Virus record (IMG/VR): IMGVR_UViG_3300035661_004715
Coordinates: 1-38,711 of that record
Length of the DNA stretch: 38,711 nucleotides
From: a virus
Taxonomy: Duplodnaviria > Caudoviricetes
Strand: one strand, 5' to 3'
Shown here: in pieces, positions 4,764-38,711 of the stretch
Layout: every line of letters begins with the position of its first letter
Position numbering within the stretch: position 1 is the first letter of the stretch
Program-made: the position numbers and the translations under genes
Notes under the pieces: model-generated
What the model was told of the DNA's origin: nothing
Seen by the model: the letters and a program-made list of their open reading frames with translations, nothing else
Databases searched by the model: none

Positions 4764-4946
4764 CTAGTTGGTAGCGCCCGCGCGGACCGCCGTGCTGGTG
4801 TGTGTGATGATAGCGAGCATGGCGAGGAGAGCGGTGATGATGTCCTGGTATTGCACCGGGACGAACGGAACGACGGCGTTCAATACGGCCATCGCGATGA
4901 TCGCGAGCTGAAGCAGGTTGGTCTTCGATTTGAGTGGGTTGTACAT
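4764..4946 (-). CDS. Putative holin (2 TM)
   Basis: 60 aa, two hydrophobic helices, N-terminal KSKT, next to the endolysin. Confidence 0.6.
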   Translation of the reverse strand: MYNPLKSKTNLLQLAIIAMAVLNAVVPFVPVQYQDIITALLAMLAIITHTSTAVRAGATN

Positions 4947-4998
4947 AGGTAAATTGTAGCAGCGAGACGGTGTCGCCTCGTGCGGTGACGTGGATAAG

Positions 4999-5772
4999 CT
5001 ACTTCGGCCGATAGCGGCCTCGGAGAATGTCGAGGATGAGGGTCAGGATCGGCCCGGTGTTCCAAGCCTTCGCCGTTTTCACCGCCTGGTCGTAGGGAAC
5101 GGTGGCGTCGACGACGGTCATTTCCGGCGGGAGCACGGGGTCCTGGGGTGCCTCTGGGGCCTTCACGGCGAGCCTCTCCGTCGAGAACTTCGCCAGCGAG
5201 ACGCACCCGTTGTAGCCGTTGTTGTAGCCGGGGATGCCGTAGAAATAGCCCGCGCGGTCTACGAATTTCGAACCATCAGCGAGCGTGACGTAACGGTCGT
5301 ATTTGTTCGAGAACTGCGTCTTGGCGAGGATGCGGATTTGCGGACCGTGAAGGTGCGCGCCGGCATGGCTCCCTGCCCGCTTCTCTGCCTCGGTCACAAG
5401 ATGCTGGCCGACGTAGCAGGCCCCGGTGTTCCCGACCTTCCCGATGATGTCGCCCACCTGGTAGGTCTTCCCTACCTCGGCCGAAGCCTCCGAGAGGTGG
5501 CCGTATGAAACCTCGTAAACGCCGGTCTGCGTCTCCACGATGAAGAACGCTGCCCGGTAGTCCATGAGCACCGGATCGTCGACATGCATGAGCGAGTAGC
5601 AGTAGGCGTTCGCCACGCAGTTCGGGATCTCCGTGCCCCACGGGACGCCCCAGTCATAGGCCGTGTGCCCCTGAAGGCCCTGTGAGGCGTAGAGCGGATT
5701 GGCGTTGGCCCCGAACCGCTGGGCGATCGTAGCTTTCGGGTAAGGCAGATAGACGGCTAGAGTTTTTTCCAT
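4999..5772 (-). CDS. M23 family metallopeptidase (endolysin)
   Basis: HTAYD (HxxxD), YGHL, IIGKVGNTG and HLH motifs. Confidence 0.85.
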   Translation of the reverse strand: MEKTLAVYLPYPKATIAQRFGANANPLYASQGLQGHTAYDWGVPWGTEIPNCVANAYCYSLMHVDDPVLMDYRAAFFIVETQTGVYEVSYGHLSEASAEVGKTYQVGDIIGKVGNTGACYVGQHLVTEAEKRAGSHAGAHLHGPQIRILAKTQFSNKYDRYVTLADGSKFVDRAGYFYGIPGYNNGYNGCVSLAKFSTERLAVKAPEAPQDPVLPPEMTVVDATVPYDQAVKTAKAWNTGPILTLILDILRGRYRPK

Positions 5773-5773
5773 A

Positions 5774-6136
5774 TTAGGGGAGGATTACGAGCTTCAAAAT
5801 TGCGACAATGACCGCGCCGACGACGATCCTGACGATCCACTTGTTGCCGTCCTTGATGTCGGCCACGTCGGAGTGGATCTGTTTGATGTCCTGACAGATT
5901 AGCGGGATGCGGCGGACAAGGATCGTCATCTGGTCCGGATCGCGCTTCTCGTCGCCCTCGCCAAACACCTCTTTCAGGCCCTCTATAAGGGCCTCCTTGG
6001 TCTGTTCGGCGGTCTTCTTGATGGCCTCGGCTAGCTGCACCTCACGGGCGATTTCAACGGCCATCTGAGCGCTCTTAGCCTTATGGGCGGCGTGCTCTGA
6101 GGCTTCGTCCGAAGTAAGGTTCGGGTCGTGCTCCAT
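5774..6136 (-). CDS. Coiled-coil protein with C-terminal TM (XhlA/holin-like)
   Basis: Start re-called at MEHDPN; coiled coil followed by WIVRIVVGAVIVAILKLVILP. Confidence 0.6.
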   Translation of the reverse strand: MEHDPNLTSDEASEHAAHKAKSAQMAVEIAREVQLAEAIKKTAEQTKEALIEGLKEVFGEGDEKRDPDQMTILVRRIPLICQDIKQIHSDVADIKDGNKWIVRIVVGAVIVAILKLVILP

Positions 6137-6137
6137 A

Positions 6138-8735
6138 CTATTTGCAGGTGTTGGTCGAGACCGTGAAGGCCCCCGCGACGATAGAGACATACTGAGGCGC
6201 GCCTAGCACGTCGTAGAGGAGGAGGCAGGAGCCCTTGTTCTGGCCAGCCTTGCCGACCTCAAGCGTGCTAGTCGCGTTAGCGGTGGTCGTTGCCACCTGG
6301 AGCTCGGCGGTTGGCGTGGTCGTGCCGATGCCGAGTCGTCCGGTGCTCAAAAACCGCGCCGTTTCCACACCACCTGCTGGCTGAAGGTCGATATGTCCGC
6401 CTGTCGTCTGGGCTGCGTTGCTCGTGCCTTGCAGGATCATAAATGCCGTCGAGGCGGTTCCCCCACGATAGGCCGCTGCGGTAGGCGTAACGAGCGCCGG
6501 AGAGCTCGACAGGACGATATTGCCGGTGCCCGTCACGCCGGTCGAGACGACACCCTTAAAGACGACGTTCCCAGCATTGTTTACTCCAAGCGATGTCTGT
6601 GTGGATGAACCCACCGCGAAGGCGTAGTTGGCATTTAGTTGTGTGTCGGCGCCTACCGAAAGTAGGGCCGTTGGAGTCGTGGTACCTATACCAACGAGGC
6701 CGCTACCGAGAATGGTCATCGCGGTCGAGGTCGCGTTCTGTGCGGTGCCGGTTAGACCAGCCGGTGCAGTCTGGAAGAGTATCGAACCGCCGACGCCCGT
6801 GCCCGTGCCCCTTGAACCAGTGATAGCGAAGTTCGCTCCTGAGCCGTTGGTAGTTCCCGTAAGCACATCCTGAACCTTGATAGTCTGAGCTATAGGAGTT
6901 GCAGAATCTGCCGCACCTAGGCGGAGCATCGCCGCACCATCACGACGTAGGAATAGATCATCTACGCTGCCTCGGAGTGCGATGGTGCTATTTCCACTGT
7001 AGTTAAGGATAGACACCGGATCGCCCAAACCCGAAGTAAGTATCAACGCGTTCGCGGTAGTCAGCTTAATAGCGAACGTCTGGCTGAACGTAGTACCACC
7101 GTTAGACGGGTTGATTGTGAGGCCAGCAATTTTTACGTTGCCGTTCTCGATGTCGAGAGGAGCCGTTGGCGTCAGGGTTCCAATACCTACGTTCCCGGCG
7201 TTGGTCACTACCACGCTGGTTGCTGACGAAGATCCTATGACGAACTGGGGCGTCGCGCCTAAAGTCGCGGTGGGGTTTATGGAAAGGAGGCCGTATGGAG
7301 ACGTTGTGCCGAGACCGAGACGGCCACTTTGAGTGATGCGCATCGTCTCGTTCGCAGCCGCAGTACCTCCGTTGAGGAAGTTCGTATAGCCCAGCCCTGA
7401 CGCAGTGGAAGTCGACGTGACAATGGATGTTGGACCCATCGAGTTCTGAATAAGGAACAAATACGGGACCGCGATAGCTGCGCCGAACGAGCTATCGGCG
7501 TAGGTACTTGAGTTAAGGAACATTCCGGCGAAGTTCGTGACGTTGCTATCGGCTTTGTCGTTGTAGAGATTGTAGCCAGAGTACGCGGCGGTGCCGTTGC
7601 TGGTGTTTCCGGTGTAGTAGCCCACACCCGCCGTGGTGTTATCGGTTCCCCAGAGGTCAATACAAGACTGCGAGACGCAGGAGAACGTAGGTGCCGCGCT
7701 GCCAAAATGGTAGTAATTGCCGTAGTGGTCTTCACGGCCCGTGACTGCGAATGCAGACATTGGCGACGAAGTGCCTACGCCAACTCGGCCAGCGTTGGTA
7801 ACAACGAAATTCGTGGCAGACGAGGAACCGATCGCGAAAGCGGGCGTAGCACCTGTGCCAGCCACTGGATTAACCGATAGCAACGCCCACGGTGACGACG
7901 AGGCAATCCCGGCATTTCCATTGCTATCGATAGTGAGGCGGCTCGTGGTCGCTAGTGCGTCGGTCAGCGTGTTGATGTTGAACACCCCACGCGAGAAGCC
8001 GAACGAACCATAGTGCTGGTTCGGGATGGCGGCGGCGTCTTCAAAGAGAAGTTGATTAGTTGTGCCAGTGTTCGTGAGCGTGAGAAGTCGTTGAGGAGAC
8101 GAGGTTCCGATACCCAAATACGAGCCGTTGTAGGTAAGACCAGAATTGCCGGCGAACGCTCCGCCCGCGTTGTACTGCACCGTGGAAGACGCACCGCCTG
8201 GTGTACCGCCCCCTGCCGTGGAGTTGACCACGTAGGGACTTCCCGACGTGCCCGATCCGGTCAGGCTGACATTGGTGCCTGCGGTGACCAGGCCGGTGAT
8301 GTTGCCGAGCTTGGCCGCGATGTTCGCGTCGAGCTTTTGGATAGCGGTTAGGATGGTGTCTGAGGGGCTAAGCGAGCCTGCTCCCGAGACGAACCCTGCC
8401 AAGGTGGCCGCCAAAGCGCGGGCATTCGTGAAATAGAGGTTGTTGAGTTCCGTCACCATCGCTGACGTGTAGTCACCAGCCTGGGCGGCCACGGCACCGG
8501 TACGAGAGAAGACTGACGAAACGCCCCCTGCCGCGAGGCCAAGCGAAGAGGTGGCGGTCAGCGTGTACGTGCCGGCTGCGTTCCCCACGAGCACTTTGCC
8601 GTACGTCGGTGCTGTGGAGGTGCCGGTACCGCCGCGTGACGGCGGCAGCACTTGGCCGTGGGCGGTGCCAGCAGCAAAGAAAGCTCCCAAGCCGACGAGA
8701 ACCGCGATCAGCCCACGCGAGAGGATTGATTTCAT
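6138..8735 (-). CDS. Fibre/adhesin-like beta-repeat protein with N-terminal signal peptide
   Basis: Repeated G(I/V/L)GTxxP units; VSSVFSRTGAV motif; signal peptide ending TAHG-Q; two C-terminal Cys. Confidence 0.75.
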   Translation of the reverse strand: MKSILSRGLIAVLVGLGAFFAAGTAHGQVLPPSRGGTGTSTAPTYGKVLVGNAAGTYTLTATSSLGLAAGGVSSVFSRTGAVAAQAGDYTSAMVTELNNLYFTNARALAATLAGFVSGAGSLSPSDTILTAIQKLDANIAAKLGNITGLVTAGTNVSLTGSGTSGSPYVVNSTAGGGTPGGASSTVQYNAGGAFAGNSGLTYNGSYLGIGTSSPQRLLTLTNTGTTNQLLFEDAAAIPNQHYGSFGFSRGVFNINTLTDALATTSRLTIDSNGNAGIASSSPWALLSVNPVAGTGATPAFAIGSSSATNFVVTNAGRVGVGTSSPMSAFAVTGREDHYGNYYHFGSAAPTFSCVSQSCIDLWGTDNTTAGVGYYTGNTSNGTAAYSGYNLYNDKADSNVTNFAGMFLNSSTYADSSFGAAIAVPYLFLIQNSMGPTSIVTSTSTASGLGYTNFLNGGTAAANETMRITQSGRLGLGTTSPYGLLSINPTATLGATPQFVIGSSSATSVVVTNAGNVGIGTLTPTAPLDIENGNVKIAGLTINPSNGGTTFSQTFAIKLTTANALILTSGLGDPVSILNYSGNSTIALRGSVDDLFLRRDGAAMLRLGAADSATPIAQTIKVQDVLTGTTNGSGANFAITGSRGTGTGVGGSILFQTAPAGLTGTAQNATSTAMTILGSGLVGIGTTTPTALLSVGADTQLNANYAFAVGSSTQTSLGVNNAGNVVFKGVVSTGVTGTGNIVLSSSPALVTPTAAAYRGGTASTAFMILQGTSNAAQTTGGHIDLQPAGGVETARFLSTGRLGIGTTTPTAELQVATTTANATSTLEVGKAGQNKGSCLLLYDVLGAPQYVSIVAGAFTVSTNTCK

Positions 8736-8750
8736 TATGTAAAGTATAGC

Positions 8751-9101
8751 TTACGGATTCCACACAAGACCGGCCGCAGCGAGTAGCCGACGGGCCTCGG
8801 TGAGCTGTTTGGTAAGGCCCGCGATCTGGTCACGCTCCTTGCGTGCCAGCATGTCCCACATCTCTCCGCAGGTTGTGCACCGACCGGAAGGATGAATGCA
8901 GTCTCGACGCGTCCGCACTTTCAAGTACGCGTAGATGCCGCCCTGCTCCGGGTACGCCTCCTGGTATTTCGCGACGTGATAGTTGATGGTCGAATGGTCG
9001 ACCCCAAACCGTCTGGCTAGAGACGCCTGGCTCTCGCCATCGTTAAAGGCAACAACAATCTCGGTGATTTCAGTGCCCGAGAGGTGCCGGAAGTGCCTCA
9101 T
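8751..9101 (-). CDS. HTH protein with Cys cluster and coiled coil
   Basis: GESQASLARRFGVDHSTI; C.H..C..C. Confidence 0.7.
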   Translation of the reverse strand: MRHFRHLSGTEITEIVVAFNDGESQASLARRFGVDHSTINYHVAKYQEAYPEQGGIYAYLKVRTRRDCIHPSGRCTTCGEMWDMLARKERDQIAGLTKQLTEARRLLAAAGLVWNP

Positions 9102-9107
9102 AGTTCG

Positions 9108-10166
9108 CTATGATAGGTATGAAATATTGAACTCGTAGGAGGAGCCGGTGACGCCGGCCGTGCCAGCAACGCCCGGCGCGCCGGTGCCACTGCCCGGAGA
9201 CGCAGCACCTCCAAGCCCGCCTGTAAGTGTGTATGCTCCGGTCCAGGTTTTCACGCCGTAGATCACGATGGCCAGGCCGCCGTTGCCGCCCGCGCCCCCG
9301 CCGTTGCCGCCTAGGTTGCCGCTTCCCGTGATCCCGCCGGCAGCCCCCCCAACACCGCCGATGCTCTTGATGGTGAACGTGCCCGCCCAGATGCGCGCCG
9401 CGATCCACACGATGCCGCCACTCGCTGCGCCACCGCCTGCTCCGCCCGTCGTGCCCGAGGCGCTGTTGTCGCCGCCGTTCGCGCCGCCGGTAGCTTCCGT
9501 GTGCGGGATTGTCAGTGAGGTCAGCGTGCCGTCAGACAGCCTCTGGGCCATGACGAGCATGACCAACGACCGGATGTGCTTCCAACTTTCTGCCGGTGCC
9601 GTGAGGGTACCCACCGAGCCAGGGCTACCAGCGACGTTTGCGCCGCCACCACTTCCGCCCGTACCCCCTTGAGAGCCGGCGCTGCCAAGTCCGGTGTAAG
9701 AACCGGCCGCCACTCCGGAATCGCCGGAGCCGGTGCCGCCACTGACACTGTTGTTGTGTCCGCCGCGCGTACCGCCTCGATTCTTGAAGACTCCTGACCC
9801 GCTTTGCACCGCGCCCGGGCCGCCGCCAGAGCCGATGCCTCCCGAGGTCGTTCCCGCGCCTCCCGGATTGGGCACGCCCCAATCAATGATTCCCGCGCCT
9901 GAGATCTGTTCGCTGACATAGATGCGGAACCCGTCGGTCGTTAGCGTGCTGCTGACCACGAGATTGCGGTAGTACATGTCCCGCGTGAGCGTGGTCGGAA
10001 CCGAGATAGTGACGTCGCCGTCGCTTCCGTCGCCGAAGCCACCCATCAAAGAGCCCGACAACTTGCCGCGGGCATCCATGCGGACGCCCTTCCCGCTGTC
10101 TGCGGAACCGGCGGAATCTCCTACAAAGTCGGAAGCATTGATCGGCTGGCCTGTGACAATGGACAT
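9108..10166 (-). CDS. Gly-rich tail fibre / receptor-binding protein
   Basis: FGDGSDGDVTI motif; extensive GGxGG repeats; position after the tail genes. Confidence 0.7.
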   Translation of the reverse strand: MSIVTGQPINASDFVGDSAGSADSGKGVRMDARGKLSGSLMGGFGDGSDGDVTISVPTTLTRDMYYRNLVVSSTLTTDGFRIYVSEQISGAGIIDWGVPNPGGAGTTSGGIGSGGGPGAVQSGSGVFKNRGGTRGGHNNSVSGGTGSGDSGVAAGSYTGLGSAGSQGGTGGSGGGANVAGSPGSVGTLTAPAESWKHIRSLVMLVMAQRLSDGTLTSLTIPHTEATGGANGGDNSASGTTGGAGGGAASGGIVWIAARIWAGTFTIKSIGGVGGAAGGITGSGNLGGNGGGAGGNGGLAIVIYGVKTWTGAYTLTGGLGGAASPGSGTGAPGVAGTAGVTGSSYEFNISYLS

Positions 10167-10169
10167 ACG

Positions 10170-10655
10170 TTAGCCAGTTAGGGTGAGCGAGTAAGTGAAC
10201 AGCGTGTCCTCACCGCTCGCCTTCGTGTAGTTCGGGCTGATGAGGATGCGCGCCAGCAAGCGCAGCGTGGCGAACAGCCCGAACTCCTTATAGGTCCCGT
10301 TCGGCAGGCTGGCGTCTGGTACGAAGACATCGACGACGAGCTGATTGTTCGTCACCGTCATGTTCGTGATCGACAGGCCGGATGCCACCGAAGTGACGAG
10401 ACCAGTGTCAGCATCGGCCGCTGCGGTCGCGCCCGTGCCCACAGCCGCACTGTTGATCGCGATGGGATAGGTCACCTCCCCCGCCATGGCGCGGAGCACG
10501 AGGTTCCGGCCGTAGCCTGAAGAGCTCACAAACTTGTTGGGGAACGGCCCCACCTCGCGGACTACCTGGCCGTCCTTGAAGGTCTTGATCGCCAGCGTCC
10601 CGCCGATGCGGGCATCATCGGCCAATTCCCTTGTTTGGACATGAGCGCATTTCAT
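10170..10655 (-). CDS. Tail/baseplate structural protein (tail-collar fibre-like)
   Basis: AVGTG...DTGL, EFGLF, L.ARI and K..EDTL..Y motifs; start re-called at 10655. Confidence 0.6.
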   Translation of the reverse strand: MKCAHVQTRELADDARIGGTLAIKTFKDGQVVREVGPFPNKFVSSSGYGRNLVLRAMAGEVTYPIAINSAAVGTGATAAADADTGLVTSVASGLSITNMTVTNNQLVVDVFVPDASLPNGTYKEFGLFATLRLLARILISPNYTKASGEDTLFTYSLTLTG

Positions 10656-10668
10656 ACGTCCAATAATA

Positions 10669-12084
10669 TCATGCCCAAGTCGCATATCCCCATCGCGGGG
10701 TATCCCAAACGTAAGGGGGAGAAGTGTGCGTTGGCGCTCCAAGTGAATCGGATGCGGCGGCAGTGTCTGTGAGCGGTATATAGTTTAGAATCGTCTCTTG
10801 ATCATCCACGATGACCTCGCGGCTGCGAATCTGGTTCTGAAGATACTCGATTATGCCGATGCTCTTCATCGTCGCGAAGCGCACGGTGTATTCCAGAGCG
10901 TCACCGAGCGGGTCACGCATAGTGGCTGTGACGGCCTGAATAAGCACGTCGATCGTCTTGCTGCGCTGCGTGGAGTTGATCGAGAGGATTTGACCGGATC
11001 GCAGCCCATCCGTGTAGGTACGGAACGAGCCCTCGTAGACCTGGCTGCTCTTATTCGACAGCTCCGCTATCGCCCGCGCGATAGCCTCGTCCTGTGAGGC
11101 AATGCTCTTGTCCGTGATCGCGAACTCGTAGGTGCCGAACAGCGCCTGCGACGCCGGGGCCGGGACCTTCACGACAATCGGGTATTTGTAGTAGCCGGTG
11201 ACATCGACGTTGCGCGTGCCGGCCGCCGGGAAATGACCAGCCGTGAAGCGAATGTACTTCTCGTTGTAGTTCCACAGACAGTCGAAGGATGCGTCGTCGT
11301 TCAGGTACTCCACGCCAACGGTCTTGGCGACGCCCCCTACGGTGACGGTGGGCTCGGATGCGAACTTGTTGCCCAGCCGGAAGACGTCGATCGTTCCGTC
11401 GCCGTCGAACTCCTCGGTGCGCGTGGTTGAAGAGGTCACCTCGCCACCCTGCACCAGGACGCTGTTGCAAATCTGGGTAAGGTCCTCGGTGATCTCCAAG
11501 CTGTCGTAGATGTAGTTCTGCGAACTGTCTGAGAGGCTGAAAGGAGCCGCCTCGCTGTTCCTGGCGAAGAAGTGAATGTCCTTGGCGTAGTCCACGTACC
11601 AGACGTGGCTGGTCGCATCGGCGAGCTTCTGGAGGCAATCCGCGACGCTAAGGCGGTTGAATGAGATGCTCTCGATAGGGAACGTGCTCGTCGTGCTCAC
11701 GCGGGTTATCCCATCGGTCGCCGCTGTGTAGTTCGTCACCAGATCAGCGACGATGGCTGCGATGGTGGTGTTCGTGTACCGCTCGGTCACGAGCTGCCGT
11801 TTGAGGTACTGGGAATAGTCGGCGCACTCGACCTCGTACTCGACGATTTTCGCGGCCTCCACATTCTCGGTGATGCGGAGGATCACCCCTCCGAAGATGA
11901 CCGCTGAATTGCGCGTTACGATCACCGCGTTTCCTATAGCTGGCGCGTAGGTGTCAGCCCCCGTACGGCGCGTCTTGAACGAGCAGTTGTCTACCTGCTG
12001 ATTGAGGACATCCCGCTTGCGGAAAGAGCCTACGACGATCTTGCTCGTCCGGTCGGTGCCCGCGATGCTGACGACGAAGCTCAT
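10669..12084 (-). CDS. Minor tail / tail-tip hub protein
   Basis: Directly after the tape measure gene; IFGG.I, WYVDY.KDIHFF and N.VLV.GG motifs. Confidence 0.7.
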   Translation of the reverse strand: MSFVVSIAGTDRTSKIVVGSFRKRDVLNQQVDNCSFKTRRTGADTYAPAIGNAVIVTRNSAVIFGGVILRITENVEAAKIVEYEVECADYSQYLKRQLVTERYTNTTIAAIVADLVTNYTAATDGITRVSTTSTFPIESISFNRLSVADCLQKLADATSHVWYVDYAKDIHFFARNSEAAPFSLSDSSQNYIYDSLEITEDLTQICNSVLVQGGEVTSSTTRTEEFDGDGTIDVFRLGNKFASEPTVTVGGVAKTVGVEYLNDDASFDCLWNYNEKYIRFTAGHFPAAGTRNVDVTGYYKYPIVVKVPAPASQALFGTYEFAITDKSIASQDEAIARAIAELSNKSSQVYEGSFRTYTDGLRSGQILSINSTQRSKTIDVLIQAVTATMRDPLGDALEYTVRFATMKSIGIIEYLQNQIRSREVIVDDQETILNYIPLTDTAAASDSLGAPTHTSPPYVWDTPRWGYATWA

Positions 12085-12085
12085 A

Positions 12086-13525
12086 CTAGAGAGCGCTGGA
12101 TAGCTTGAGGCGCGACATGATCATGTCGCCGATCTGCTCCGCGACGCTTTCGCTGAGGTAGGTGCCTCCGACGAGGTTGACGGTGCTGACCCCGCTGCTC
12201 ACTGGATTAGCGCGCCCGGCTAGGTCCGCGTTCGCGATAGCGCCAACATCGAAGCGGCCGAGATCCGCTCGTTTCAGTTCAGAGATGCTCGGTATGAGCT
12301 TGCCAACGCCTGGGACCTTCTGGGCCGCCGCGATGACGCTGTTGATCGCGCGGATGGCCGTGTTCACGCCGTTGATGATGAAGTTGATCATGCCCTCGAC
12401 GGTGCCGATCACCGCGTTGGCTGCGTCGGCCACGATCACTTTGATGCCGAGCCATACCTCCTGCCACGCGGCCTTGGTGAGGTAGCCCTGCGATACGAAA
12501 ATGGCGAGGATGGCGACCACAGCGCCGATGGCCAGCAGAAGAGGCGCTGAGATTGCCGTCACGGCCCCAAGGACGGTGCCCAGCGCGCCGAACATGATGA
12601 TGAGGCCAGGGAGGGCTATCGCGATAGGCAGGAGGACCGCCAGGACGGCTGCAAACGCCACAGCGCCTATGAGGAGTACGGTGGTTAGTTTGGGGTGTTC
12701 CTGAGCGAAGGCCGCCACCGCCTGCGTGATCTCGATAAGCTTCTCCACAAGCGGCTTGAGATAGGGCACGAGCTCGTTGCCGATGGCGCGCGAGGCAAGC
12801 GTCACCTGGTCCTTGAAGTTGCTCCACAGGCCGCCAAGCGATGCGGATTGCTTGTCCATGAGATTGAAGAAACGGCCGCCTTCCTCCGTTAGGCCGGTGA
12901 GCGCGACGCGTACGTCGTCGAAGCTAACGCCGCGATCTGAGACCATCTCCTGCACCGCGCCCGCTGTCGTATGGAAATGCTTCGCCAGCTCGTCGAGGAG
13001 CGGCACTCCGGCTTCGGTGAACTGACGGAGTTCAGCGCCAGTAAGGCGGGTCGCCGCCTTCACCTGGCCGAAGGCGAGGATGAGCTGAGGCAGTTTGTCC
13101 ATGCCGACGCCGGCCGAAATGTCCCCGAGCACCTTGAGCGTGGGAATGAGCTCGTCGGCGGTTGTCCCGTATGCCAGCAGCCGCTTGGATGCGTCCTCGA
13201 TCTGGGGAAGCTCGAACGGCGTCCTGGCGACGAACTGGGAGAGCTTGTTGAGGGTTTCCTGCCCCTTCTGGGCCGACCCGATCATGGTGGCGAATGCAAT
13301 CTGCGTCTGCTCGTACTTAGCGCCCGCTTCCACGACGCCCTTAGTCACCAGAGCGAGACTGCCAAACGCCACAACGCCGGCCGCGCCTACGCCCTTCATC
13401 GCTGAGGTCAGACCTTCGTTGCTCTTTTTGAGGCTATCGAGGTCGCCCTTGATCGCCGCGAAAGCGCCCTGAGCTCGGTTTTGGGCGTCAACGACTATCT
13501 GTAGTTTGGTCTCCTTAGTTGCCAC
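12086..13525 (-). CDS. Tape measure protein (short, 479 aa)
   Basis: TPFELPQI, LGDISAG, GQVKA, ELRQFTEAGVP and SNFKD motifs; long hydrophobic segment. Confidence 0.9.
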   Translation of the reverse strand: MATKETKLQIVVDAQNRAQGAFAAIKGDLDSLKKSNEGLTSAMKGVGAAGVVAFGSLALVTKGVVEAGAKYEQTQIAFATMIGSAQKGQETLNKLSQFVARTPFELPQIEDASKRLLAYGTTADELIPTLKVLGDISAGVGMDKLPQLILAFGQVKAATRLTGAELRQFTEAGVPLLDELAKHFHTTAGAVQEMVSDRGVSFDDVRVALTGLTEEGGRFFNLMDKQSASLGGLWSNFKDQVTLASRAIGNELVPYLKPLVEKLIEITQAVAAFAQEHPKLTTVLLIGAVAFAAVLAVLLPIAIALPGLIIMFGALGTVLGAVTAISAPLLLAIGAVVAILAIFVSQGYLTKAAWQEVWLGIKVIVADAANAVIGTVEGMINFIINGVNTAIRAINSVIAAAQKVPGVGKLIPSISELKRADLGRFDVGAIANADLAGRANPVSSGVSTVNLVGGTYLSESVAEQIGDMIMSRLKLSSAL

Positions 13526-13724
13526 GAGATTGGTGTTTAGCGGCTAGCTCCTGCTCCTTTCGATCCCGCCTCATCTTCTCGACGATGAGCTTGATCACAA
13601 AGGTCGGAGTGGCCATGTACTCTTCATATGTCCAGCCGAACTCCTGCATGAGAGCGACCATCTGCATGGCCGGATTCATCCGGCCCATGCTGTAGTTGCT
13701 GACGGCGTCGGCTATTTCTTTTTT
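13515..13724 (-). CDS. Tail assembly chaperone G-T extension (-1 frameshift product)
   Basis: A_AAA_AAG at 13718-13724; the -1 frame reads EIADAVSNYSMGRMNPAMQMVALMQEFGWTYEEYMATP...RGN*. Confidence 0.8.
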   Translation of the reverse strand, partial: KKEIADAVSNYSMGRMNPAMQMVALMQEFGWTYEEYMATPTFVIKLIVEKMRRDRKEQELAAKHQSRGN

Positions 13725-14032
13725 TTTGAAACGAGCTGGTCGAGAGCGTCCACGAGCTCGATAAAATCGTCGCTCGGTAGCTCAAGGCAGCGATCAAGGA
13801 TGTTCTCGGCGCTGCCATCCATCGCCACCACGATCTGCCGCACCATCTCCTGTTGAACCTCGAACTGCACTCCCGGATTGAACTCAGTGAACCGGGGCTG
13901 CTCTCCGACGACCTCTAGCTTCGTGCCCTTGAAGTATGCCTGCTGGATGGTGTTGGCTTCGCGGGCGGTAGCGTAGGATTTCACTTGGTACGCATGCGTC
14001 CCAATTGTCAGCTCATTGGTCTCTCGATCCAT
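13712..14032 (-). CDS. Tail assembly chaperone (gpG-like)
   Basis: Between tail tube and tape measure genes; ends SKKKK on a slippery A9G run. Confidence 0.8.
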   Translation of the reverse strand: MDRETNELTIGTHAYQVKSYATAREANTIQQAYFKGTKLEVVGEQPRFTEFNPGVQFEVQQEMVRQIVVAMDGSAENILDRCLELPSDDFIELVDALDQLVSKKKK

Positions 14033-14035
14033 ACA

Positions 14036-15183: not shown

Positions 15184-15212
15184 GCGAGAAGTATAGCACC
15201 CCGGATTCCACG

Positions 15213-15434: not shown

Positions 15435-15442
15435 CGCCCCGG

Positions 15443-17567: not shown

Positions 17568-17576
17568 AGGCGTGAA

Positions 17577-26444: not shown

Positions 26445-26453
26445 TCCTAATCA

Positions 26454-26479: not shown

Positions 26480-26502
26480 GTCAGCCATCAACCTCACGCA
26501 CC

Positions 26503-29721: not shown

Positions 29722-29853
29722 CGTAGCCTCCATGGTGCATGGGAAGAACTCCTGTGTTCCTCCTCAATTCTACCACGGGGCTATCCCCAGCTACTGCGTC
29801 CGGGGGTGTACAGCCGTGCTTGAATGAGTGTGGATATTGAAAGGAGACACCTC

Positions 29854-30030
29854 ATGTCCAACCGCCCGGACTACGACGTCTTTGTCAGCCAGAAAAACGG
29901 CGACAAGAATTTCTACACGAAGGTCGGTGCCGCCTGGAACGTCGCCAAGGACGGCATCTCGATCAAGCTGCAAGCCCTGCCGCTGGATGGGAACCTGGTA
30001 CTGTTCCCGCCCAAAGACCCGGACGAATAG
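29854..30030 (+). CDS. Small beta-sheet protein (KVGAAW motif, DUF736-like)
   Basis: SD AAGGAG; FYTKVGAAW...GISIKLQALP.DG.LVLFPP. Confidence 0.75.
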   Translation: MSNRPDYDVFVSQKNGDKNFYTKVGAAWNVAKDGISIKLQALPLDGNLVLFPPKDPDE

Positions 30031-30142: not shown

Positions 30143-31081
30143 TCATGGGCGGTTGATGTGCTTCGGCTCGCTGGTGGTCGCCCATGGCTGGTCGAGTAGG
30201 TTCACGAGGAGCGAACGGGGCACGCGCCAGTTAGCGCCGAACGACGCATCCGACGTTACCGCGAACCGTCCCTCGAACTGCTGGTCACCATGCTTCTTCA
30301 CGTAGTCGAGGATGTTGCGGCCGTGCGTGGCGTTGGTCGTGACGGTGAGAACGGTGAGGTTCGGCAGGCCGAAATGCGCCTGGTAGGTGCGGTTGCGCAG
30401 AATCTCGAAGTAGCCGGCGATCTTCTTGCCGAATGAGTTCTGGTCGAGGTTCTTCCGCTCGATGCTCTCGGTGTTGCGGTCGATTTCCACGGCGAAGAAG
30501 CGGAAGCCTGCGCCCGGGTACTCGATGCCAAATAAGTCGTCCGGAACGATGAATTTCTGAGAGCCCATCTCTGAGAGAGGAATAGCCATCGGGTTGCCCT
30601 CGTGCCGGGGGCATTTCTCGTGCGCAAGTATCTCCGCGCGGGGGATGTACCGAAGCCCGTTCCACCTCGCCACGATCTCAATGGAAGCCGCGACGCAAGC
30701 GCCCATGAGCTGATGCAGGAAGGCGTCGGCACGCTTGGCTGCGACGGTCACGCCACGCTCAGCGAGCACAGCCTTGGCCCTGGGCGTCAGGTCGTACACG
30801 ATGTGCTGACAGTGGGCGTTGTAGGCGGCGAACTGCTGAGGGGGGCGGAAGAGGTAGGGGCCGCCGTGGTCGCCGTTGTAGAGCTGAGTCAGACGGTACT
30901 GGAAGTTTGCATAGTTCTTCCGGATTGGGCGGATGAACTCGAACAGGTAGTGCGTCGGCAGCGGGCCGTGGCGGTTTATTGCCTCGAAGATGAGGTACTC
31001 CGCTTCGGTCAGGACGATGCCTTTGGAGACCGCGCTCGGCGGCTCGAAGCGGATGCGTCTATTGAGGCTGTCCGTTTTCAT
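30143..31081 (-). CDS. Replication-relaxation (Replic_Relax) family relaxase
   Basis: wHTH-like N-terminus, FLHQL, PDDLFG, FFAVEIDRNTE, K...Y and VLTVT motifs. Confidence 0.8.
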   Translation of the reverse strand: MKTDSLNRRIRFEPPSAVSKGIVLTEAEYLIFEAINRHGPLPTHYLFEFIRPIRKNYANFQYRLTQLYNGDHGGPYLFRPPQQFAAYNAHCQHIVYDLTPRAKAVLAERGVTVAAKRADAFLHQLMGACVAASIEIVARWNGLRYIPRAEILAHEKCPRHEGNPMAIPLSEMGSQKFIVPDDLFGIEYPGAGFRFFAVEIDRNTESIERKNLDQNSFGKKIAGYFEILRNRTYQAHFGLPNLTVLTVTTNATHGRNILDYVKKHGDQQFEGRFAVTSDASFGANWRVPRSLLVNLLDQPWATTSEPKHINRP

Positions 31082-31182
31082 ACATGAGGAGATAACTGCA
31101 CGCGCTGCGGTCGTAACCGTTCGGCATGGGCAGCGATGGGTAGGGGTATTCCGCTACGAGCGAGAATGAACACCCTGAAATT

Positions 31183-33225
31183 CTACCATTCCGACGAGAT
31201 GTCTTCGTCCGGCGGTGGGGACACAGCTTTGCGGATAGTCATCGTCGCGTGCCCGGTGACTGCTGGCGGCTCGGGTTCAGGCGGAGGTAGCGCTCCCCTG
31301 CTCCCCAGGGATACGCGGGCGCGGTTGGCCAGCATGAAGGCGTCAAAGTCGTCCGGCGACATCTTGGGCAGTCGGTCGATAGACCCTACGCCTACCGGGA
31401 TAGAGACGGCGTGCGGCGTCACGTTCCGGATATGCGCTGCGAAATGAAGGCGGGGCTGGTCGTTGATAAAATCGGCCGTGGTCCGCATGTCGGGGGCCAT
31501 GTAGCGGGCGTCCGCGGCTGAGAGCCCAGCGGCGAACTTGGCCCCGGAGTTGGCGGCAAGGCTAGCCCGCAGAGAAGACGACGCCTGGTCGAGATACTGG
31601 TGAGCGAGCACCAATCCGCAACGGTACTTCCGGGCGTCCGTGAGTAGGTCGTCGATGTTGCTGTCGAAGTAGGACGCTGCCTCGTCGACGATGAGGAACG
31701 TGTCCTTCCGCTGGCTCTCCTTGATGGCCGCCCGCTCAAGGATTGCCTGAAGCGTGAGCGATATGAAGATGCGGCCAAAGTTCGAGGATGCGCCCTTGAG
31801 GAAGTCCTTTGCGGTATCGACGAGGATGACGCTGCCCCGGTTCATCTCCTGGAAGAGGTCGATCTTCGTGTCTGGGCTCGTGAACAGCCGCGCGATGGTC
31901 GGGTTCTCGATGATAGCCTGCAAGCGATAGCGTATCTGCTCCTTCGTCTGCGCGAAGGTCTTGCTCATGAAGTCCTGCATGAAGAAGTCGCGCGGGATCT
32001 CCGGCAGTGCGCGGATGGCGTCCATGTAGGGCGTCGGGTCCAACATGAGCTTCATCATGTCGAGGATCGTAGCGTTGCGGCCCATCGTCTCCGGCAGCGA
32101 CAGCATGAGGCGGGCGACATAGCGGAAGAAGACGCCCTGCTTGGCGGTGAGGTCCGCGCCTAAGAGGCCGGTGAAAAGGTAGTCGAAGGTCTGGATGACG
32201 CCGGCCGATACCTGCTCGCGGGTGGCTTCGTCGTAGCCCTTCATGCGTTCCTGGTTGACGGCGAAGACGTTGAGCGCGGGCGGGTTATGGATGTCTCTGG
32301 GGTCGATGACGATGAGGCGGTCTTCGATACCTATATCGGCATGGACGAGCCTGCGGATGAGGTCGCCGTGGGGGTCGATGATGACGAGGCTGGGGGGATC
32401 GTCGGACGCCAGGTCGTGCAGGATGAGGTTCTCGATGAGCGAGGTCTTCCCGGCCCCGGTGCCGCCGACGATGTGCATGTGGTTCATGCGGTCGTCGTGC
32501 GTGAGTTTAAGCGGGACGGACGTATTGAAGAGCTCGTGGAAGGTCGTATCAGCCAGATAGCGGTCGGCTAGCTCGTTCAACGCAAAGCGGCTGTCGGGTG
32601 CCCGAACGAGAGGCTTCTTGCTGTTCTGATCGTCCGGGTCTCGACCGGACGCCGCGCAGAGGTTTCGGATCATCTGGTTCGATGTCGGCCGGAACATGCC
32701 GCAGTCCGCGTACTCGTCGCGCAGGAAGGTGTTGAGTATCTGATCCATCACGAGCGCCGGCTTCGCGAGCGTGTAGCCGAGCGGGATAGTGAATGGTGTC
32801 GGGTTCTGGGTGCGGGGCAGGAGCTCGCCAATCCCAGTCAGGATCGAAACAAGGCCCTCATGCAAGAGGTCGAGCATCTTCTGCTGGTTCAGGAAAAAGT
32901 ACTGCTTCCGGTGCAGGAGATTTCGATAGTCGACGAACTCCTTGAGGCTCATACGCTCGAAGTTCGGCGGCTCGATCTCAAACAGGTACTCCTCGCCGAC
33001 GATGAGGTCGTACATGACGAGGATAAGCGCGCTCCTCACCTCCTCAGAAAACGGCGAGAGGTGCGGATAGACGCGCTGCCCTATCGTAGCGGGAGTCTCG
33101 CCGAAGCGATCCTGGTGAGCGCGCACCCACGCATATAACTGCTGCGCCTCGTCGAACTCCCTCCCCTTCTCGTCCGTAAAGCGACGGAGGAAGGGGACGT
33201 ACGTCGAAGGGCGAGGGAACTCCAT
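31183..33225 (-). CDS. Type IV coupling protein-like ATPase (VirD4/TraD/TrwB-like)
   Basis: HMHIVGGTGAGKT, IIDPHGD, LIVDEA and ARKYRCGLVLAHQYLDQ; start at MEFPRP through a TGATG overlap. Confidence 0.85.
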   Translation of the reverse strand: MEFPRPSTYVPFLRRFTDEKGREFDEAQQLYAWVRAHQDRFGETPATIGQRVYPHLSPFSEEVRSALILVMYDLIVGEEYLFEIEPPNFERMSLKEFVDYRNLLHRKQYFFLNQQKMLDLLHEGLVSILTGIGELLPRTQNPTPFTIPLGYTLAKPALVMDQILNTFLRDEYADCGMFRPTSNQMIRNLCAASGRDPDDQNSKKPLVRAPDSRFALNELADRYLADTTFHELFNTSVPLKLTHDDRMNHMHIVGGTGAGKTSLIENLILHDLASDDPPSLVIIDPHGDLIRRLVHADIGIEDRLIVIDPRDIHNPPALNVFAVNQERMKGYDEATREQVSAGVIQTFDYLFTGLLGADLTAKQGVFFRYVARLMLSLPETMGRNATILDMMKLMLDPTPYMDAIRALPEIPRDFFMQDFMSKTFAQTKEQIRYRLQAIIENPTIARLFTSPDTKIDLFQEMNRGSVILVDTAKDFLKGASSNFGRIFISLTLQAILERAAIKESQRKDTFLIVDEAASYFDSNIDDLLTDARKYRCGLVLAHQYLDQASSSLRASLAANSGAKFAAGLSAADARYMAPDMRTTADFINDQPRLHFAAHIRNVTPHAVSIPVGVGSIDRLPKMSPDDFDAFMLANRARVSLGSRGALPPPEPEPPAVTGHATMTIRKAVSPPPDEDISSEW

Positions 33226-34016
33226 CAGTTCTTCTTCAGATAAAAGTACGCCCCGAGCCCCGCAATTAGCGGGACGCCCAGATGCACCATGAGCGACGCC
33301 TTCAGGCCCAGGACGAGTAGGCCGAGCACCCCGCCAACGACGCATGCCCAGAGTATCGGACGTCGCCGAGCGGGTCGGGTCCGCTCGTTGAACCAGGCGA
33401 TGACGCGGTCAAGGTCGCTCGGACCCCCAGCGGTCGAGGCCGATGCGCTGTAGGAGCTTCCCACGTAGTCAGGACCCGCAAGTACTGGGTCGGCCGTCCG
33501 ATGCATGGCCTGGGTTCGCGGAAGGGCGGCCTGTGCCTGCGGGGGTGCGATAGCTAAGGGTGCTGGCGCTGTAGCCGTCACTGTGGGTTCATCCTGGTCG
33601 AAATCAACGACCACTTCACGGCCGTCAAAGGTAGCCGCGAGACCGAGATAGCCCTTGAGGTTTTGACAGGCCGTCATGATGGCCTCCTCGGTGCCGAGCA
33701 GTTCCTCCATGCTCTTGCACTCGACGTGCTGGCCATTGCGTAGACTGCCGATGCTTATGTTGAGGTTCATAGCGGCCATCGCCAGTGTGGCGAGGGACTT
33801 CAAACCGCCGATTGCTGAGCCGTCGTTTTGGCCCTGGCTCTTGTCGAGAAGGCGGCGGGCCGCCTCGCTGTTGTAGATCACCTGCTTCTCCATCTTGTAC
33901 CGCTTGATGTCAGCAGCTTCCGCGTCAGTGAAAGTGACGCGGGCGTCGAGGCAGAAGATTACGGTTTTCGACATGACGCCAGCATCGCGCTGCGAGCGCT
34001 GTAACTTGAGTTGCAT
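33225..34016 (-). CDS. Membrane protein with two C-terminal TM helices
   Basis: Globular N-domain, Pro/Ala linker and 2 TM helices; translationally coupled to the ATPase. Confidence 0.7.
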   Translation of the reverse strand: MQLKLQRSQRDAGVMSKTVIFCLDARVTFTDAEAADIKRYKMEKQVIYNSEAARRLLDKSQGQNDGSAIGGLKSLATLAMAAMNLNISIGSLRNGQHVECKSMEELLGTEEAIMTACQNLKGYLGLAATFDGREVVVDFDQDEPTVTATAPAPLAIAPPQAQAALPRTQAMHRTADPVLAGPDYVGSSYSASASTAGGPSDLDRVIAWFNERTRPARRRPILWACVVGGVLGLLVLGLKASLMVHLGVPLIAGLGAYFYLKKN

Positions 34017-34077: not shown

Positions 34078-34842
34078 TTATCTGGGATTGATCATGCTCT
34101 CGATCAGGTCGTTGTAGCCGTTGGTATTCGGAAGGATGCCGGCATAGAGCGCCAGCGTCTTCGCGTCCTCCGGCGTGCAGCGGCTCCCGACCTTCGTCCC
34201 GATCTGCATGAGCTGGTTGCGGAGCTTCGGAACCTCGTCGAATGAGGTGATGCCCGCTACTAGCCGGCCCTGGCGTATGAGGCTGGTGTGGAAGGGGCAG
34301 GCATAAAAGCCGAAGTCCGGAATGACGACGGTGCCGGGGTACTGCGAGATCAGCAGGTTCGCGAGCACGAAGCAGTCGAAGTCCCCGAGCACGGCGCGGT
34401 CAAGCCTGGCGATGATGGTGCCCTTGAAAGACATGTTCGTCGGCCTGGTAAGGACATTCTCAAGGACAGGAGAGAGGAGCAATGTCTGTATCTTTTGGTA
34501 CGCGTACCTAGTGTCCTTACTGTCCTTGATAAGCTCCGCGAGCTTCCGTGGCTTGCCGTCGAGCGCTTCGAGTATCTGGAAGGTAGCGTTCGCCTTCGTG
34601 AGCGTGTTCTCACCTTCGGGAAATATCGCATTGAGGACATCGACGAACTCGCGCGCCCTCAGATAGGACATGTCCTTGAGCGGGTTGAACGAGTGTTCTC
34701 GGACATCAAAGACCGTGGTGCTCCTGCGCTCGGGCATATCCAGCGCGTCGATGATCGGCCCGTCGTCGATGATGAGAAAGCGATCGGGTGGTATGTACTG
34801 TAAAAGCGGTTCCTTATCGGAGCCGACGATGAGGGCATTCAT
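34078..34842 (-). CDS. Degenerate coupling-ATPase-like protein
   Basis: ALIVGSDK, FLIIDDG, FNPL and VVIPDFGFY align in order with T4CP motifs but lack GxxGxGKT and DE. Confidence 0.55.
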   Translation of the reverse strand: MNALIVGSDKEPLLQYIPPDRFLIIDDGPIIDALDMPERRSTTVFDVREHSFNPLKDMSYLRAREFVDVLNAIFPEGENTLTKANATFQILEALDGKPRKLAELIKDSKDTRYAYQKIQTLLLSPVLENVLTRPTNMSFKGTIIARLDRAVLGDFDCFVLANLLISQYPGTVVIPDFGFYACPFHTSLIRQGRLVAGITSFDEVPKLRNQLMQIGTKVGSRCTPEDAKTLALYAGILPNTNGYNDLIESMINPR

Positions 34843-35889: not shown

Positions 35890-36334
35890 CTAGTAATATG
35901 CAAGGATAGTGGGGATAGTAGGAATGGGTGAAAGTGGGAATGGTAGGATTGTTATGCGAGCCACGGCTCGTTGATTTTCTTCACGCCGCAAGCCATCCGA
36001 AAGGGTGGCTTGTTGCGTTTCAACGCGACGGTGAATGTGTGGGGCGTCCTTTAGGACAGGGCGGGCGGGCAGGTTTCTATCGGACAGTGGGAGTGGTGAG
36101 GGTAAAGGACATTGTACTAGACCGCACCAGTTCGTCGGTGGCTTATGGCCACGACCCCTCACATGTCCTTGAGCGTTAGATCAAGGTTCTTGGGTGTCCA
36201 GAGTGACCCCTAGAAAAGGTGAGGGGTCGTGGCCGCTAGGCCATGCGAACTGGTGCGGAATCAGTCCCTTACGGTACCTATCCCCACCATACAGGGTACC
36301 AGGGCGTATGCCGTGGGTGTGTGGTGGTTGTCGC
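35890..36334 (+). ncRNA. Candidate large structured RNA or origin region
   Basis: Perfect 13-bp (36122-36134/36246-36258) and 16-bp (36147-36162/36219-36234) stems closing a branched junction; GAAA hairpin at 35989-36012; G-U pairs favour the + strand. Confidence 0.5.
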
Positions 36335-37293: not shown

Positions 37294-37338
37294 CGTGCGT
37301 CTCCTGCGGGGTTCAATTCCTCACTTAGTATACATACG

Positions 37339-37373
37339 AAAAAGGGGCCAGCGGGTTGATACCCACTGGCCCC
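37339..37373 (-). terminator. Intrinsic terminator after int-alpA
   Basis: GGGGCCAGTGGGT/ACCCGCTGGCCCC stem followed by TTTTT on the minus strand. Confidence 0.8.
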
Positions 37374-37383
37374 AGTGACTCCG

Positions 37384-37578
37384 TTAGGAGTCGGTGTGTC
37401 TATCGCGATCGGCAACGCGGGAAGCCATCCACTCCTGAATTTCACCTTCTACATAAGCGACCCTGCCGCTTCCGAGTCGTACCCGTCTAGGGAACTTCCC
37501 GTCCGCTTCGAGACGCGCCGTATGGGCGAAACTGTAGGTGACTAGCTCTTTTACCTGCCGCTTCGATAAGAACCTCAT
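37384..37578 (-). CDS. alpA: AlpA family regulator / excisionase
   Basis: FLSKRQVKE, GKFPRRVRLG..RVAY.E.EI.EW; SD AAAGGAG; next to the integrase. Confidence 0.88.
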   Translation of the reverse strand: MRFLSKRQVKELVTYSFAHTARLEADGKFPRRVRLGSGRVAYVEGEIQEWMASRVADRDRHTDS

Positions 37579-37616
37579 CGCGGAACTCCTTTTCAGGAGC
37601 TCGCGCGAGCTCAGGG

Positions 37617-38711
37617 TTAGCCCTGGGCGAGGAGACCTTGAAGGAAAGCCTCGTACTTAGCCAGTGCGGCCCGCTTCTCCTCGATGCGATCGTACCTGTC
37701 GTAGATCTCATCGAGCACGGGCGGAGCGTGGTTGATGAGCACCTCGCACACCTCGCGAGGAACCTTGAGCCGGGCCATGTTGGACCGGAACGTCCGGCGG
37801 ATATCTCGTATCTGCCAGTTCTTCGTTTTGGATCGCTTCATCACCTCCGCCTTGAGCTTCGGCAGGGCGTGGTGCGTCAGGTGTGCGTCTCCCCATCGGC
37901 TAGGAAAGAAATATCGTTCATTGGCCGGCAGTCCGTCGAGAACAGTCTGAGCGAGAGGCTCGATAGGGATGCCGTGATCCCGGCCGTTCTTGGTGTGCCC
38001 ACCCGGAATAGTCAGCACCCCCTCAACGACCCAATTTCGCTCCAGGAGCGTCGTCTCCATGTTCCGCGTACCAAACAGTATGAGGAGCCTAAAGATGCTG
38101 TAGGGGGCCGTTTCTGAGGCGTTCCAGATGGCTACGAGCTCCTCGTCGGTAAGGGTACGAGTTCCCTTCCGGTCCTTGCCCGGCGGCTCGTATCCTTCCA
38201 TCGGTGAGAGCTTCATGTAGCGGCGCGGCGCGCGCGTACACCACTTGAGGAAGGCGCGGACGGAACGGTAGGCATGAAGCTGCTGGCTCGGCCGGTCGGC
38301 AAGCTTGTCGAGACACTTCTTCACGTCGGCGTCGTCGATGTCCGCAAGCTGCTGTTGTTCCAGCGGCTTGAAATACAGCGTGAGGAGCTTGGTCACGTTG
38401 TAACGGGTGCGTGGGTTCTCGTACGTGTCCAGGAATGCTTCTCTGGCGGCCTTGAACGTCATTCCTGGCGCAATGGGCTCGGGCTTGGTGGAAAGGAGCC
38501 TACGGGCCTCGTTGCGGGCTTCCGCAAGGGAAATGTCCCCGAACTTCCCGATGGAGATGCGTTCGCGGTTTCGACCGCGCACGACGACATACGTCTTGGC
38601 CCGCTTCCCGACGCGGACGCCGAAGCCAGGCAAGCTATCCCAGTGCGTGACGCTCTTGTCCGAACCTTTGAGGGCGCGGATGGCGAGTTCGGTCAGGGCG
38701 ATTTGGCTCAC
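37617..38711 (-). CDS. int: Tyrosine integrase with arm-binding (DUF4102-like) domain
   Basis: LT...IR.LK, WD.LPGFGVRV, GTR, TKNG, RDIRRT, LINH and IYDRY motifs. Confidence 0.92.
   Translation of the reverse strand: MSQIALTELAIRALKGSDKSVTHWDSLPGFGVRVGKRAKTYVVVRGRNRERISIGKFGDISLAEARNEARRLLSTKPEPIAPGMTFKAAREAFLDTYENPRTRYNVTKLLTLYFKPLEQQQLADIDDADVKKCLDKLADRPSQQLHAYRSVRAFLKWCTRAPRRYMKLSPMEGYEPPGKDRKGTRTLTDEELVAIWNASETAPYSIFRLLILFGTRNMETTLLERNWVVEGVLTIPGGHTKNGRDHGIPIEPLAQTVLDGLPANERYFFPSRWGDAHLTHHALPKLKAEVMKRSKTKNWQIRDIRRTFRSNMARLKVPREVCEVLINHAPPVLDEIYDRYDRIEEKRAALAKYEAFLQGLLAQG

Follow-up and report, generated by a model that had tools for sequence, protein, structure and literature searches.

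What kind of mobile element sets a full complement of virion genes and a conjugation-type relaxase beside a single integrase? We addressed this question in IMG/VR virus record IMGVR_UViG_3300035661_004715 (Duplodnaviria; Caudoviricetes), all 38,711 nt of which (positions 1 to 38,711) are referred to here as the window. The record is a provirus that was excised from an 86,715-nt contig and trimmed at gene ends, with a start codon at each end. A preliminary description, made from the sequence alone, had proposed a hybrid in which virion genes and a relaxase/coupling-protein module share one integrase. The present analysis supports a single element composed of a phage half and a cassette of mobilisation-type genes. 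The reading that we favour, with a probability of roughly one half, is a temperate phage that may spread both in virions and by mobilisation through a borrowed type IV secretion system (T4SS), the same nick possibly priming its replication.

Virion genes and cassette under one integrase

Is the window one element or two lying side by side? In minus-strand order, the cassette half comprises the integrase, AlpA, small genes, an orphan gene, a putative anchor, the ATPase, the Replic_Relax relaxase, CHC2 and a DUF932-like gene. The rest contains restriction-modification (R-M) cargo of the PvuII type, TerS, TerL, portal, protease, capsid, neck, tail, fibre and lysis genes and a left arm. The features of the cassette are as follows.

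37617..38711, minus: tyrosine integrase, the sole recombinase (Arm-DNA-bind_3, phrog_1)
37384..37578, minus: AlpA excisionase-like regulator (PF05930)
36122..36258, no strand: conserved long inverted repeat, candidate origin, with the core GCCACGACC...GGTCGTGGC at 36148-36233
34078..34842, minus: conserved protein of no known family (no Pfam match)
33225..34016, minus: candidate membrane anchor with C-terminal membrane helices (hydropathy); its stop overlaps the ATPase start
31183..33225, minus: soluble TrwB/VirD4-like ATPase (PF10412 TrwB_AAD_bind, 37.7 bits, cut-off 20.5)
31082..31182, minus: conserved spacer of ~100 nt upstream of the relaxase, candidate relaxase promoter or oriT (26-element alignment)
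30143..31081, minus: MOBC-type relaxase (Replic_Relax) with a winged helix and a PD-(D/E)xK domain (PF13814, 31.4 bits, cut-off 25.3)
29824..30030, plus: small conserved protein with the working label "ssb-like" (weak DUF736 match, E 0.16)
29116..29733, minus: CHC2 zinc-finger protein resembling a primase N-terminus (PF01807)
27964..28677, minus: DUF932-like protein at the cassette edge (weak PF06067 match; 55-82% identical in relatives)

The virion half is arranged as follows.

17175..25029, minus: packaging and head genes, syntenic in relatives (TerS, TerL, portal-MuF, protease, HK97 capsid, SAP protein, decoration-like protein)
24628-25029, minus: TerS-like gene of the head block
23304-24677, minus: TerL, head block
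20581-22665, minus: portal-MuF fusion, head block, beside the S78 protease
17994-19136, minus: HK97 capsid, head block
6138..17114, minus: neck and tail genes (adaptor, neck, terminator, tube, chaperone pair, tape measure, hub, fibre)
14036-15010, minus: tail tube
12086-13525, minus: tape measure
4764..6190, minus: lysis genes (XhlA-like, M23 peptidase, and a holin candidate of 60 aa with two helices)

Both modules named in the preliminary description were confirmed: the head, tail and lysis genes are full-length, and the PF13814 and TrwB_AAD_bind matches exceed their cut-offs. With terminase, portal, protease, capsid, tube, tape measure and lysis genes, the window has the content of a temperate HK97-fold phage; it also has that of an integrative and mobilisable element (IME), defined by an integrase and a relaxase, an optional coupling protein and no T4SS (PMC5357655). 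The single integrase/excisionase pair was borne out as well, since one tyrosine integrase and one AlpA gene are present and no second recombinase or serine-recombinase motif was found in the window. VirB, helicase and initiator families were absent above cut-off among the 59 window proteins scanned, as had been described; a CHC2 primase zinc-finger protein is present. Two other statements needed amendment: most genes lie on the minus strand but a few on the plus strand, and the extent first given (4764..38711) holds both modules but leaves out the left arm, bases 1-4702, which the element also takes in.

The window itself contains no tRNA genes and no att-like repeats, the att sites falling outside its trimmed ends, and this leaves room for a chance nesting of two elements or an assembly chimera, which we nevertheless consider very improbable. 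No exact repeat longer than 13 nt joins 24.5-30.1 kb to either window end, in agreement with the lack of a visible internal junction noted earlier, and no internal repeat was found that would set off 27-38 kb as a separate IME. The same gene order recurs in independent records. In a Sphingomonadaceae metagenome-assembled genome (MAG; G016:C47, locus L099), it lies within a 56-bp direct repeat at tRNA-Lys whose copies (8167-8221 and 46734-46789) are 38.6 kb apart, with no internal copy and a GC content of 0.61 inside compared with 0.69-0.70 in the flanks. This single pair largely refutes nesting or chimerism. In G445, which has a different virion module, a split tRNA-Gly likewise encloses both halves. 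The proposed mapping of att sites was thus achieved in two relatives, though not inside the window. Furthermore, the relaxase and capsid match lists have five contigs of exactly equal size in common (0.05 expected), one of them that of G016, and one contig of the likely source run, which is not independent, covers 18712-29428.

Another piece of evidence was provided by conservation. The ATPase, relaxase and CHC2 genes were present in all six relatives (L005, L151, L152, L225, L226 and L229) that were found by terminase alone, with TerL identity of at least 70% and at least 9 kb of upstream sequence; the expected co-occurrence and synteny of this terminase clade with PF13814 and a coupling protein hold among these close relatives. 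Four shorter terminase-found loci (L003, L004, L154 and L232) reach the cassette edge, and the remainder are too short to judge. Exactly one integrase was counted in each of nine virion-bearing elements (9/9). Together, the lone att pair that brackets the two halves in each of two relatives and the 6/6 retention of the cassette support the view of the window as one element. Circular forms are indicated by terminal repeats in G443 and an attP-like gene order in G025.

The window integrase is 54-66% identical to the integrases of ten related elements, several of which lie at tRNA-Gly. Integrases of this family leave a second copy of the 5' half of the tRNA-Gly gene, and the complete tRNA is found at the far end (L101:1277-1315 and 15133-15206; also G001, G015, G017 and G019).

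The terminase clade is rare in the sampled genomes but not absent. It was not found in 400 sampled genomes of the order of G016 or in 244 of a second order, and 400 others of the class of G016 yielded one distant match only; a record of Parerythrobacter lacustris, possibly a cultured host, contains a TerL of this clade. Among cultured phages no close relative was found, the best matches being ~34% for TerL, 26% for the tube and one weak match for the ATPase.

The remaining parts of the window are as follows.

1929..4702, strand not given: left arm with divergent small genes, a VRR-NUC nuclease and HTH_39; G016 has a comparable arm within its att pair
1..1925, strand not given: left-end cargo (71-aa gene, secreted-type protein, RelA/SpoT-domain protein)
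25434..27329, strand not given: PvuII-type R-M cargo (methylase, C protein, endonuclease) in a variable slot at the cassette/terminase joint

The slot between cassette and terminase holds different cargo in relatives, including other R-M genes and genes that we take to be ArdC-like. Two further cargo genes lie among the head genes, at 20180-20575 (RAMA/PDC-S14-like) and 22696-23238 (a 180-aa protein without a name), in joints that carry other inserts in relatives. At the left end, a homologue of the 71-aa gene precedes tRNA-Gly and the integrase in G025, and the RelA/SpoT-domain protein (807-1925) matches PADLOC PDC-S33 (297 bits), possibly representing alarmone-type defence cargo. The region 2545-2908 appears to be non-coding, with ~60 nt that are 81% identical to G445 (L282:13858-13919), of another virion type. 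An A9 run at 13705-13720, at the stop of the first tail chaperone gene, is a likely programmed frameshift site.

Origins of the two halves

Where did the two halves come from? Six complete or near-complete deeper relatives (G434-G439; TerL 51-66%, 27-32 kb) have no integrase and no cassette gene, the latter judged by local hidden Markov models (HMMs) that detect all known carriers. Three of this group have terminal repeats, and so does G439, a complete circular phage of 26.7 kb that is colinear with the virion half of the window; 26.7 kb plus a cassette of ~12 kb gives the size of the window. No integrase, initiator or helicase was recognisable in G439 (L252, L253). Virion modules lacking the mobilisation genes therefore do exist, in 6/6 deeper relatives, but these lack the integrase too, and close relatives keep the cassette. 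The joint absence of cassette and integrase in deeper relatives points to a past fusion rather than a loose neighbour.

Trees were built for the relaxase and TerL only, both by quick searches. In the TerL tree, the carriers fall into a single group within the cassette-free phages (one label change versus 5.0 after shuffling, 0/500 as low), and the cassette was likely gained once and then kept in this terminase subclade. The branch parting the carriers from G439 is poorly supported (13), and a gain followed by a loss in G439 would be possible. The same cassette is found on three further terminase types (G025/G443, G026 and G444/G445). The virion label does not cluster on the relaxase tree (6 changes versus 7.9 shuffled, 61/500 as low), which implies that virion modules were gained or lost repeatedly, in either direction given the uneven sampling.

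Such scatter would also suit a mobilisable island with passive phage cargo that no longer makes particles, as would the finding that numerous other cargoes accompany the same core in 14 stretches that lack virion genes (hereafter islands; all extended or examined, three of them checked less widely). We find this improbable, since passive cargo would decay, and the virion genes here have kept their full length and the order seen in a complete circular phage. TerL remains 74-85% identical while the relaxases drop to 26-60%, and the divergence of the two is parallel (rho 0.74 and 0.76, n=7, p about 0.05).

The start signals of the two halves also differ, which supports separate origins. In open reading frame (ORF) counts from seven carriers, a TAnnnT box ending 4-12 nt before ATG was found at 23 of 174 phage-side ORFs (1.5 expected) versus none of 46 cassette ORFs (Fisher p 0.005), while Shine-Dalgarno (SD)-like motifs were found at 18/174 (22 expected) and 14/46 (6 expected), respectively (Fisher p 0.002). 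In the window alone, with a widened motif, the box preceded 11 of 18 hand-picked phage-side starts and none of 10 cassette starts. The motif was chosen after the window had been viewed, so the relatives constitute the real test, and the cassette-free ones show the phage-side style, with the box in 30/193 (5.4 expected). Capsid and tube genes carry SD motifs. Throughout 1929-25029, a -10-like box lies just upstream of many structural genes and SD motifs are few, which is odd for a late operon and puzzling in an alphaproteobacterial lysogen.

Could the phage half have been shaped for a different host? In such a case, phages of a non-Shine-Dalgarno lineage would be stored by alphaproteobacteria at tRNA genes, the cassette, on at least four phage types, would move them through a secretion channel, and virions would be made mainly in the other host. 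We presume that this could be Patescibacteria epibionts, and the likeness of the phage side to Patescibacteria phages is likewise our guess. This scenario appears doubtful to us, though slightly less so than passive cargo. It would account for the restriction of the TAnnnT box to the phage side and of SD-like motif enrichment to the cassette, with cassette-free relatives following the phage-side pattern; no spanin-like lipoprotein was found among the lysis genes, and the anti-SD sequence is reported missing in about half of Parcubacteria (PMC9297842). However, no Patescibacteria or candidate phyla radiation name appeared among the homologues, almost all of which carry no host name, Atlas searches gave no host clue, and the named bacterial hosts are alphaproteobacteria only (Bauldia, Parerythrobacter and Sphingomonadaceae). 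In addition, SD motifs occur on the capsid and tube genes, GC content is similar in the virion and cassette halves, the motif set was picked after viewing the window, and leaderless starts are known in other bacteria. If the scenario were true, alphaproteobacterial chromosomes would harbour a store of viruses whose target is another host.

Candidate functions of the cassette

A further important question is what the cassette does for a phage. In the favoured reading, the integrase and AlpA would release the entire 39 kb from a tRNA gene in circular form, and the MOBC relaxase would cut a cognate origin, for which 31082-31182 and 36122-36258 are the candidates. The anchor would keep the soluble TrwB-fold ATPase at the membrane, and the ATPase would then feed the strand into a VirB channel whose genes lie elsewhere. 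Strand copying may be assisted by CHC2 and the ssb-like protein, and the same nick may prime replication of the excised circle, as in ICEBs1. Head, tail and lysis genes would package the circle. The phage half would descend from small integrase-less phages on which the cassette conferred lysogeny in alphaproteobacteria.

How well do the proteins fit these roles? In the relaxase, residues P180-D181, E199, D201, K220 and Y224 are invariant in 41 aligned sequences, taken from 120 listed homologues. Its model (pLDDT 85.8) has a restriction-enzyme-like C-terminal domain, with middling matches (winged helix Z 7.9, PaqCI Z 6.8), and PF13814 has been assigned a winged helix plus PD-(D/E)xK fold (PMC3424549) and corresponds to the MOBC class in CONJscan terms (PMC5357655). 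In the ATPase, the Walker A (GGTGAGKT) and Walker B (FLIVDEA) motifs are both intact, and its model (pLDDT 83.6) matches TrwB best (E 6e-10); PDB sequence searches gave weak TrwB matches only. The anchor has a hydrophobic C-terminal helix in the window and in most full-length relatives, as judged by hydropathy, and no usable match to it was obtained in the Atlas search. Because the upstream gene encodes membrane helices and the ATPase homologues of three deeper relatives (G026, G027 and G433) do have N-terminal ones, we infer that a coupling protein may have been split into anchor and ATPase. A complex prediction for the two proteins scored 0.00 and is uninformative either way. The neighbouring protein at 34078-34842, detected by HMM in 6/13 virion-bearing elements (in G445 away from the cassette) and 1/14 islands, looks like a degenerate paralogue of the ATPase.

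Two candidate cis elements were found. The inverted repeat at 36122-36258 has a DNA fold z of -9.7, and its arms are conserved in sequence across seven elements while the spacer is variable. It is complete in 6 of the 13 virion-bearing elements (3 of the 13 being cut short nearby) and 1 of the 14 islands, with a single arm in two more; since the seven complete copies were used to build the final repeat model, the initial detection alone is independent. No Rfam family reached the gathering score, and only chance-level matches were obtained near the repeat. The spacer at 31082-31182 contains spaced CAT boxes and a TTAC-N17-TA motif that are kept in phage and island forms.

The cassette also exists outside this virion type. 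With the relaxase alignment, 28 genome loci were found and 24 genomes were searched (two entries share genomes); the genome of one of the 28 contains this terminase clade. In viral contigs, detection of the relaxase needed the alignment as a query, a single-protein scan matching nothing. Virion-less islands bounded by att sites measure 14, 21, 34, 42, 43 and 47 kb; they are inserted at tRNA-Gly or tRNA-Thr and carry defence-type cargo. A virB2/4/6/9/10/11 operon adjoins the anchor-ATPase-relaxase trio in G008 and a virB2/4/6/11 operon in G017, and canonical VirD4 matches in these two genomes lie far from the trio only. VirB4 was detected in 16 of the 24 host genomes, including that of G016, which makes these helper candidates. 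The relaxase-ATPase pair is found on plasmids with and without annotated Rep genes: plasmid pRS11DPr5 has two of these and also encodes CHC2, and the other plasmid is from Sulfitobacter.

Several side observations concern these copies. Some islands (G001, G002:C40, G015, G017 and G019; e.g. L136, L145 and L147) contain a second nested module composed of a serine recombinase-like gene, a P-loop protein, an XRE-like gene and a VirD4-like ATPase that is 26-28% identical to that of the window. In islands L098 and L104, the relaxase gene has the opposite orientation to the ATPase gene, and the two are convergent on pRS11DPr5 as well. The RHS-flanked virB operons inside or beside islands (L089:11088-18709; G017, L146 and L100) possibly encode a toxin-delivery T4SS, and that of G017 has two virB2-like genes. 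One alphaproteobacterial MAG has, close to its cassette copy, a CAP-domain-like gene (L105:12919-13566), which we take to resemble Parcubacteria proteins.

The best ATPase fold (TrwB), the virB operons adjoining the trio and the presence of the pair on plasmids constitute a conjugation-type context and argue for mobilisation. A number of points weigh against it. The window ATPase has no membrane helix and thus lacks the N-terminal membrane domain of VirD4/TrwB, while MobB of CloDF13 is reported to require its membrane helix for mobilisation (PMC7431656). HerA is the second-best fold match (E 7e-7). The anchor is truncated and helix-less in G016 and G025, and cassette genes are broken or separated in many islands. 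The cassette-adjoining virB operons (2/24 genomes) accompany RHS genes and may therefore be independent cargo. Locus L159 (TerL 67%) has no cassette gene in 5.3 kb upstream and is a possible counter-example to cassette retention. The strongest evidence of this kind is that CHC2, the ssb-like gene and the inverted repeat track virion genes and not islands, which fits a role in phage replication and disfavours a purely conjugative one.

Could the cassette, then, be a phage replication machine only? In this main rival, the relaxase would nick the repeat, the ATPase would act as a HerA-like translocase, CHC2 and the ssb-like protein would prime and protect the strand, and conjugation would be vestigial. 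We hold it to be a tentative alternative, well short of the favoured reading and clearly ahead of the others considered here. The distribution speaks for it (CHC2 in 13/13 virion-bearing elements versus 2/14 islands, the ssb-like gene in 10/13 versus 0/14, the full repeat in 6/13 versus 1/14), as do the solubility of the ATPase and the lack of a helicase or initiator in the window. Five of the six cassette-free relatives have what we take to be an initiator-like gene, the name being our assumption for four, and Pfam gave none for one tested. However, G439 has neither the cassette nor a recognisable initiator, G016 carries the cassette plus an HTH_36 protein, a plasmid with its own Rep genes retains the pair and CHC2, and virion-less islands keep intact anchor, ATPase and relaxase genes. 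Moreover, deletion of the homologous MOBC-ATPase operon in phage 0305phi8-36 is reported to cause no laboratory growth defect (PMC3357382).

The same fusion on four phage types, some in alphaproteobacterial chromosomes, makes it likely that these viruses have a second way to spread, the mating channel being the candidate route. They form a natural series, since one core occurs fused to phages, as islands alone, next to virB and on plasmids, four states in all. With matched phages that lack the cassette and with two candidate origins, the question of phage conjugation becomes testable, possibly in a cultured host. The suggested route to temperance for integrase-less phages is fusion with a mobilisable island, and the division between phages and IMEs in mobile-element surveys becomes blurred.

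Comparison with known systems

The fusion is real and conserved, but a MOBC relaxase with an ATPase in phages is itself already known, which makes the idea less new; of the hybrid first proposed, the single element is supported and the dual spread is plausible. "DNA translocation operons" of this kind were described in the Bacillus phages 0305phi8-36, SPO1, GBSV1 and Gamma/Cherry/WBeta, both lytic and temperate, by Pathria et al. 2012, who proposed spread by translocation (PMC3357382), and further Bacillus phages have Replic_Relax with FtsK (PMC9658697). Such phage-borne pairs have been unexplained since 2012. The present family resembles these operons, as described in the sections available to us, in its CloDF13 MobC-type relaxase beside an ATPase within a phage, near integration genes in temperate phages, and it shares with 0305phi8-36 an ATPase without a membrane helix, for which separate anchor proteins were proposed there. 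In contrast to the Bacillus operons as described in those sections, it has alphaproteobacterial hosts, a TrwB/VirD4-like ATPase, a cassette that brings the sole integrase, CHC2 and conserved cis elements, virion-less islands and virB-adjoining copies. No published description of this alphaproteobacterial family was found in the literature searched, whose scope left most subscription journals outside.

Like CloDF13 MobB/MobC and streptococcal IME class 8 (PF13814 plus VirD4), the window combines a MOBC relaxase with its own coupling protein and has no mating-pair genes (PMC7431656, PMC5357655), and with the latter it shares the presence of an integrase (PMC5357655). It differs, as far as the available text describes these systems, in a tyrosine instead of a serine integrase, an ATPase without a membrane domain and a whole virion module joined to these genes.

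Phage-plasmids (Pfeifer et al. 2021, PMC7969092) likewise unite phage and plasmid-type genes in one unit, but no Rep or partition family was found among the 59 window proteins, and this element type integrates at tRNA genes. Tandems and nested forms of a phage and an integrative and conjugative element (ICE; Huang et al. 2026, PMC13651849) also join phage and conjugative functions in one integrated unit, often at tRNA-Gly. In the parts of that study available to us, however, they are two elements of separate identity, typically with an ICE-encoded T4SS, and the five table rows compared are all T4SS-type ICEs, the alphaproteobacterial ones being MOBP1; some overlap of that table with the present family is conceivable. 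Here, in contrast, there are no separate integrases, internal att sites or mating-pair genes in the window, and a single integrase serves virion genes and MOBC cassette alike.

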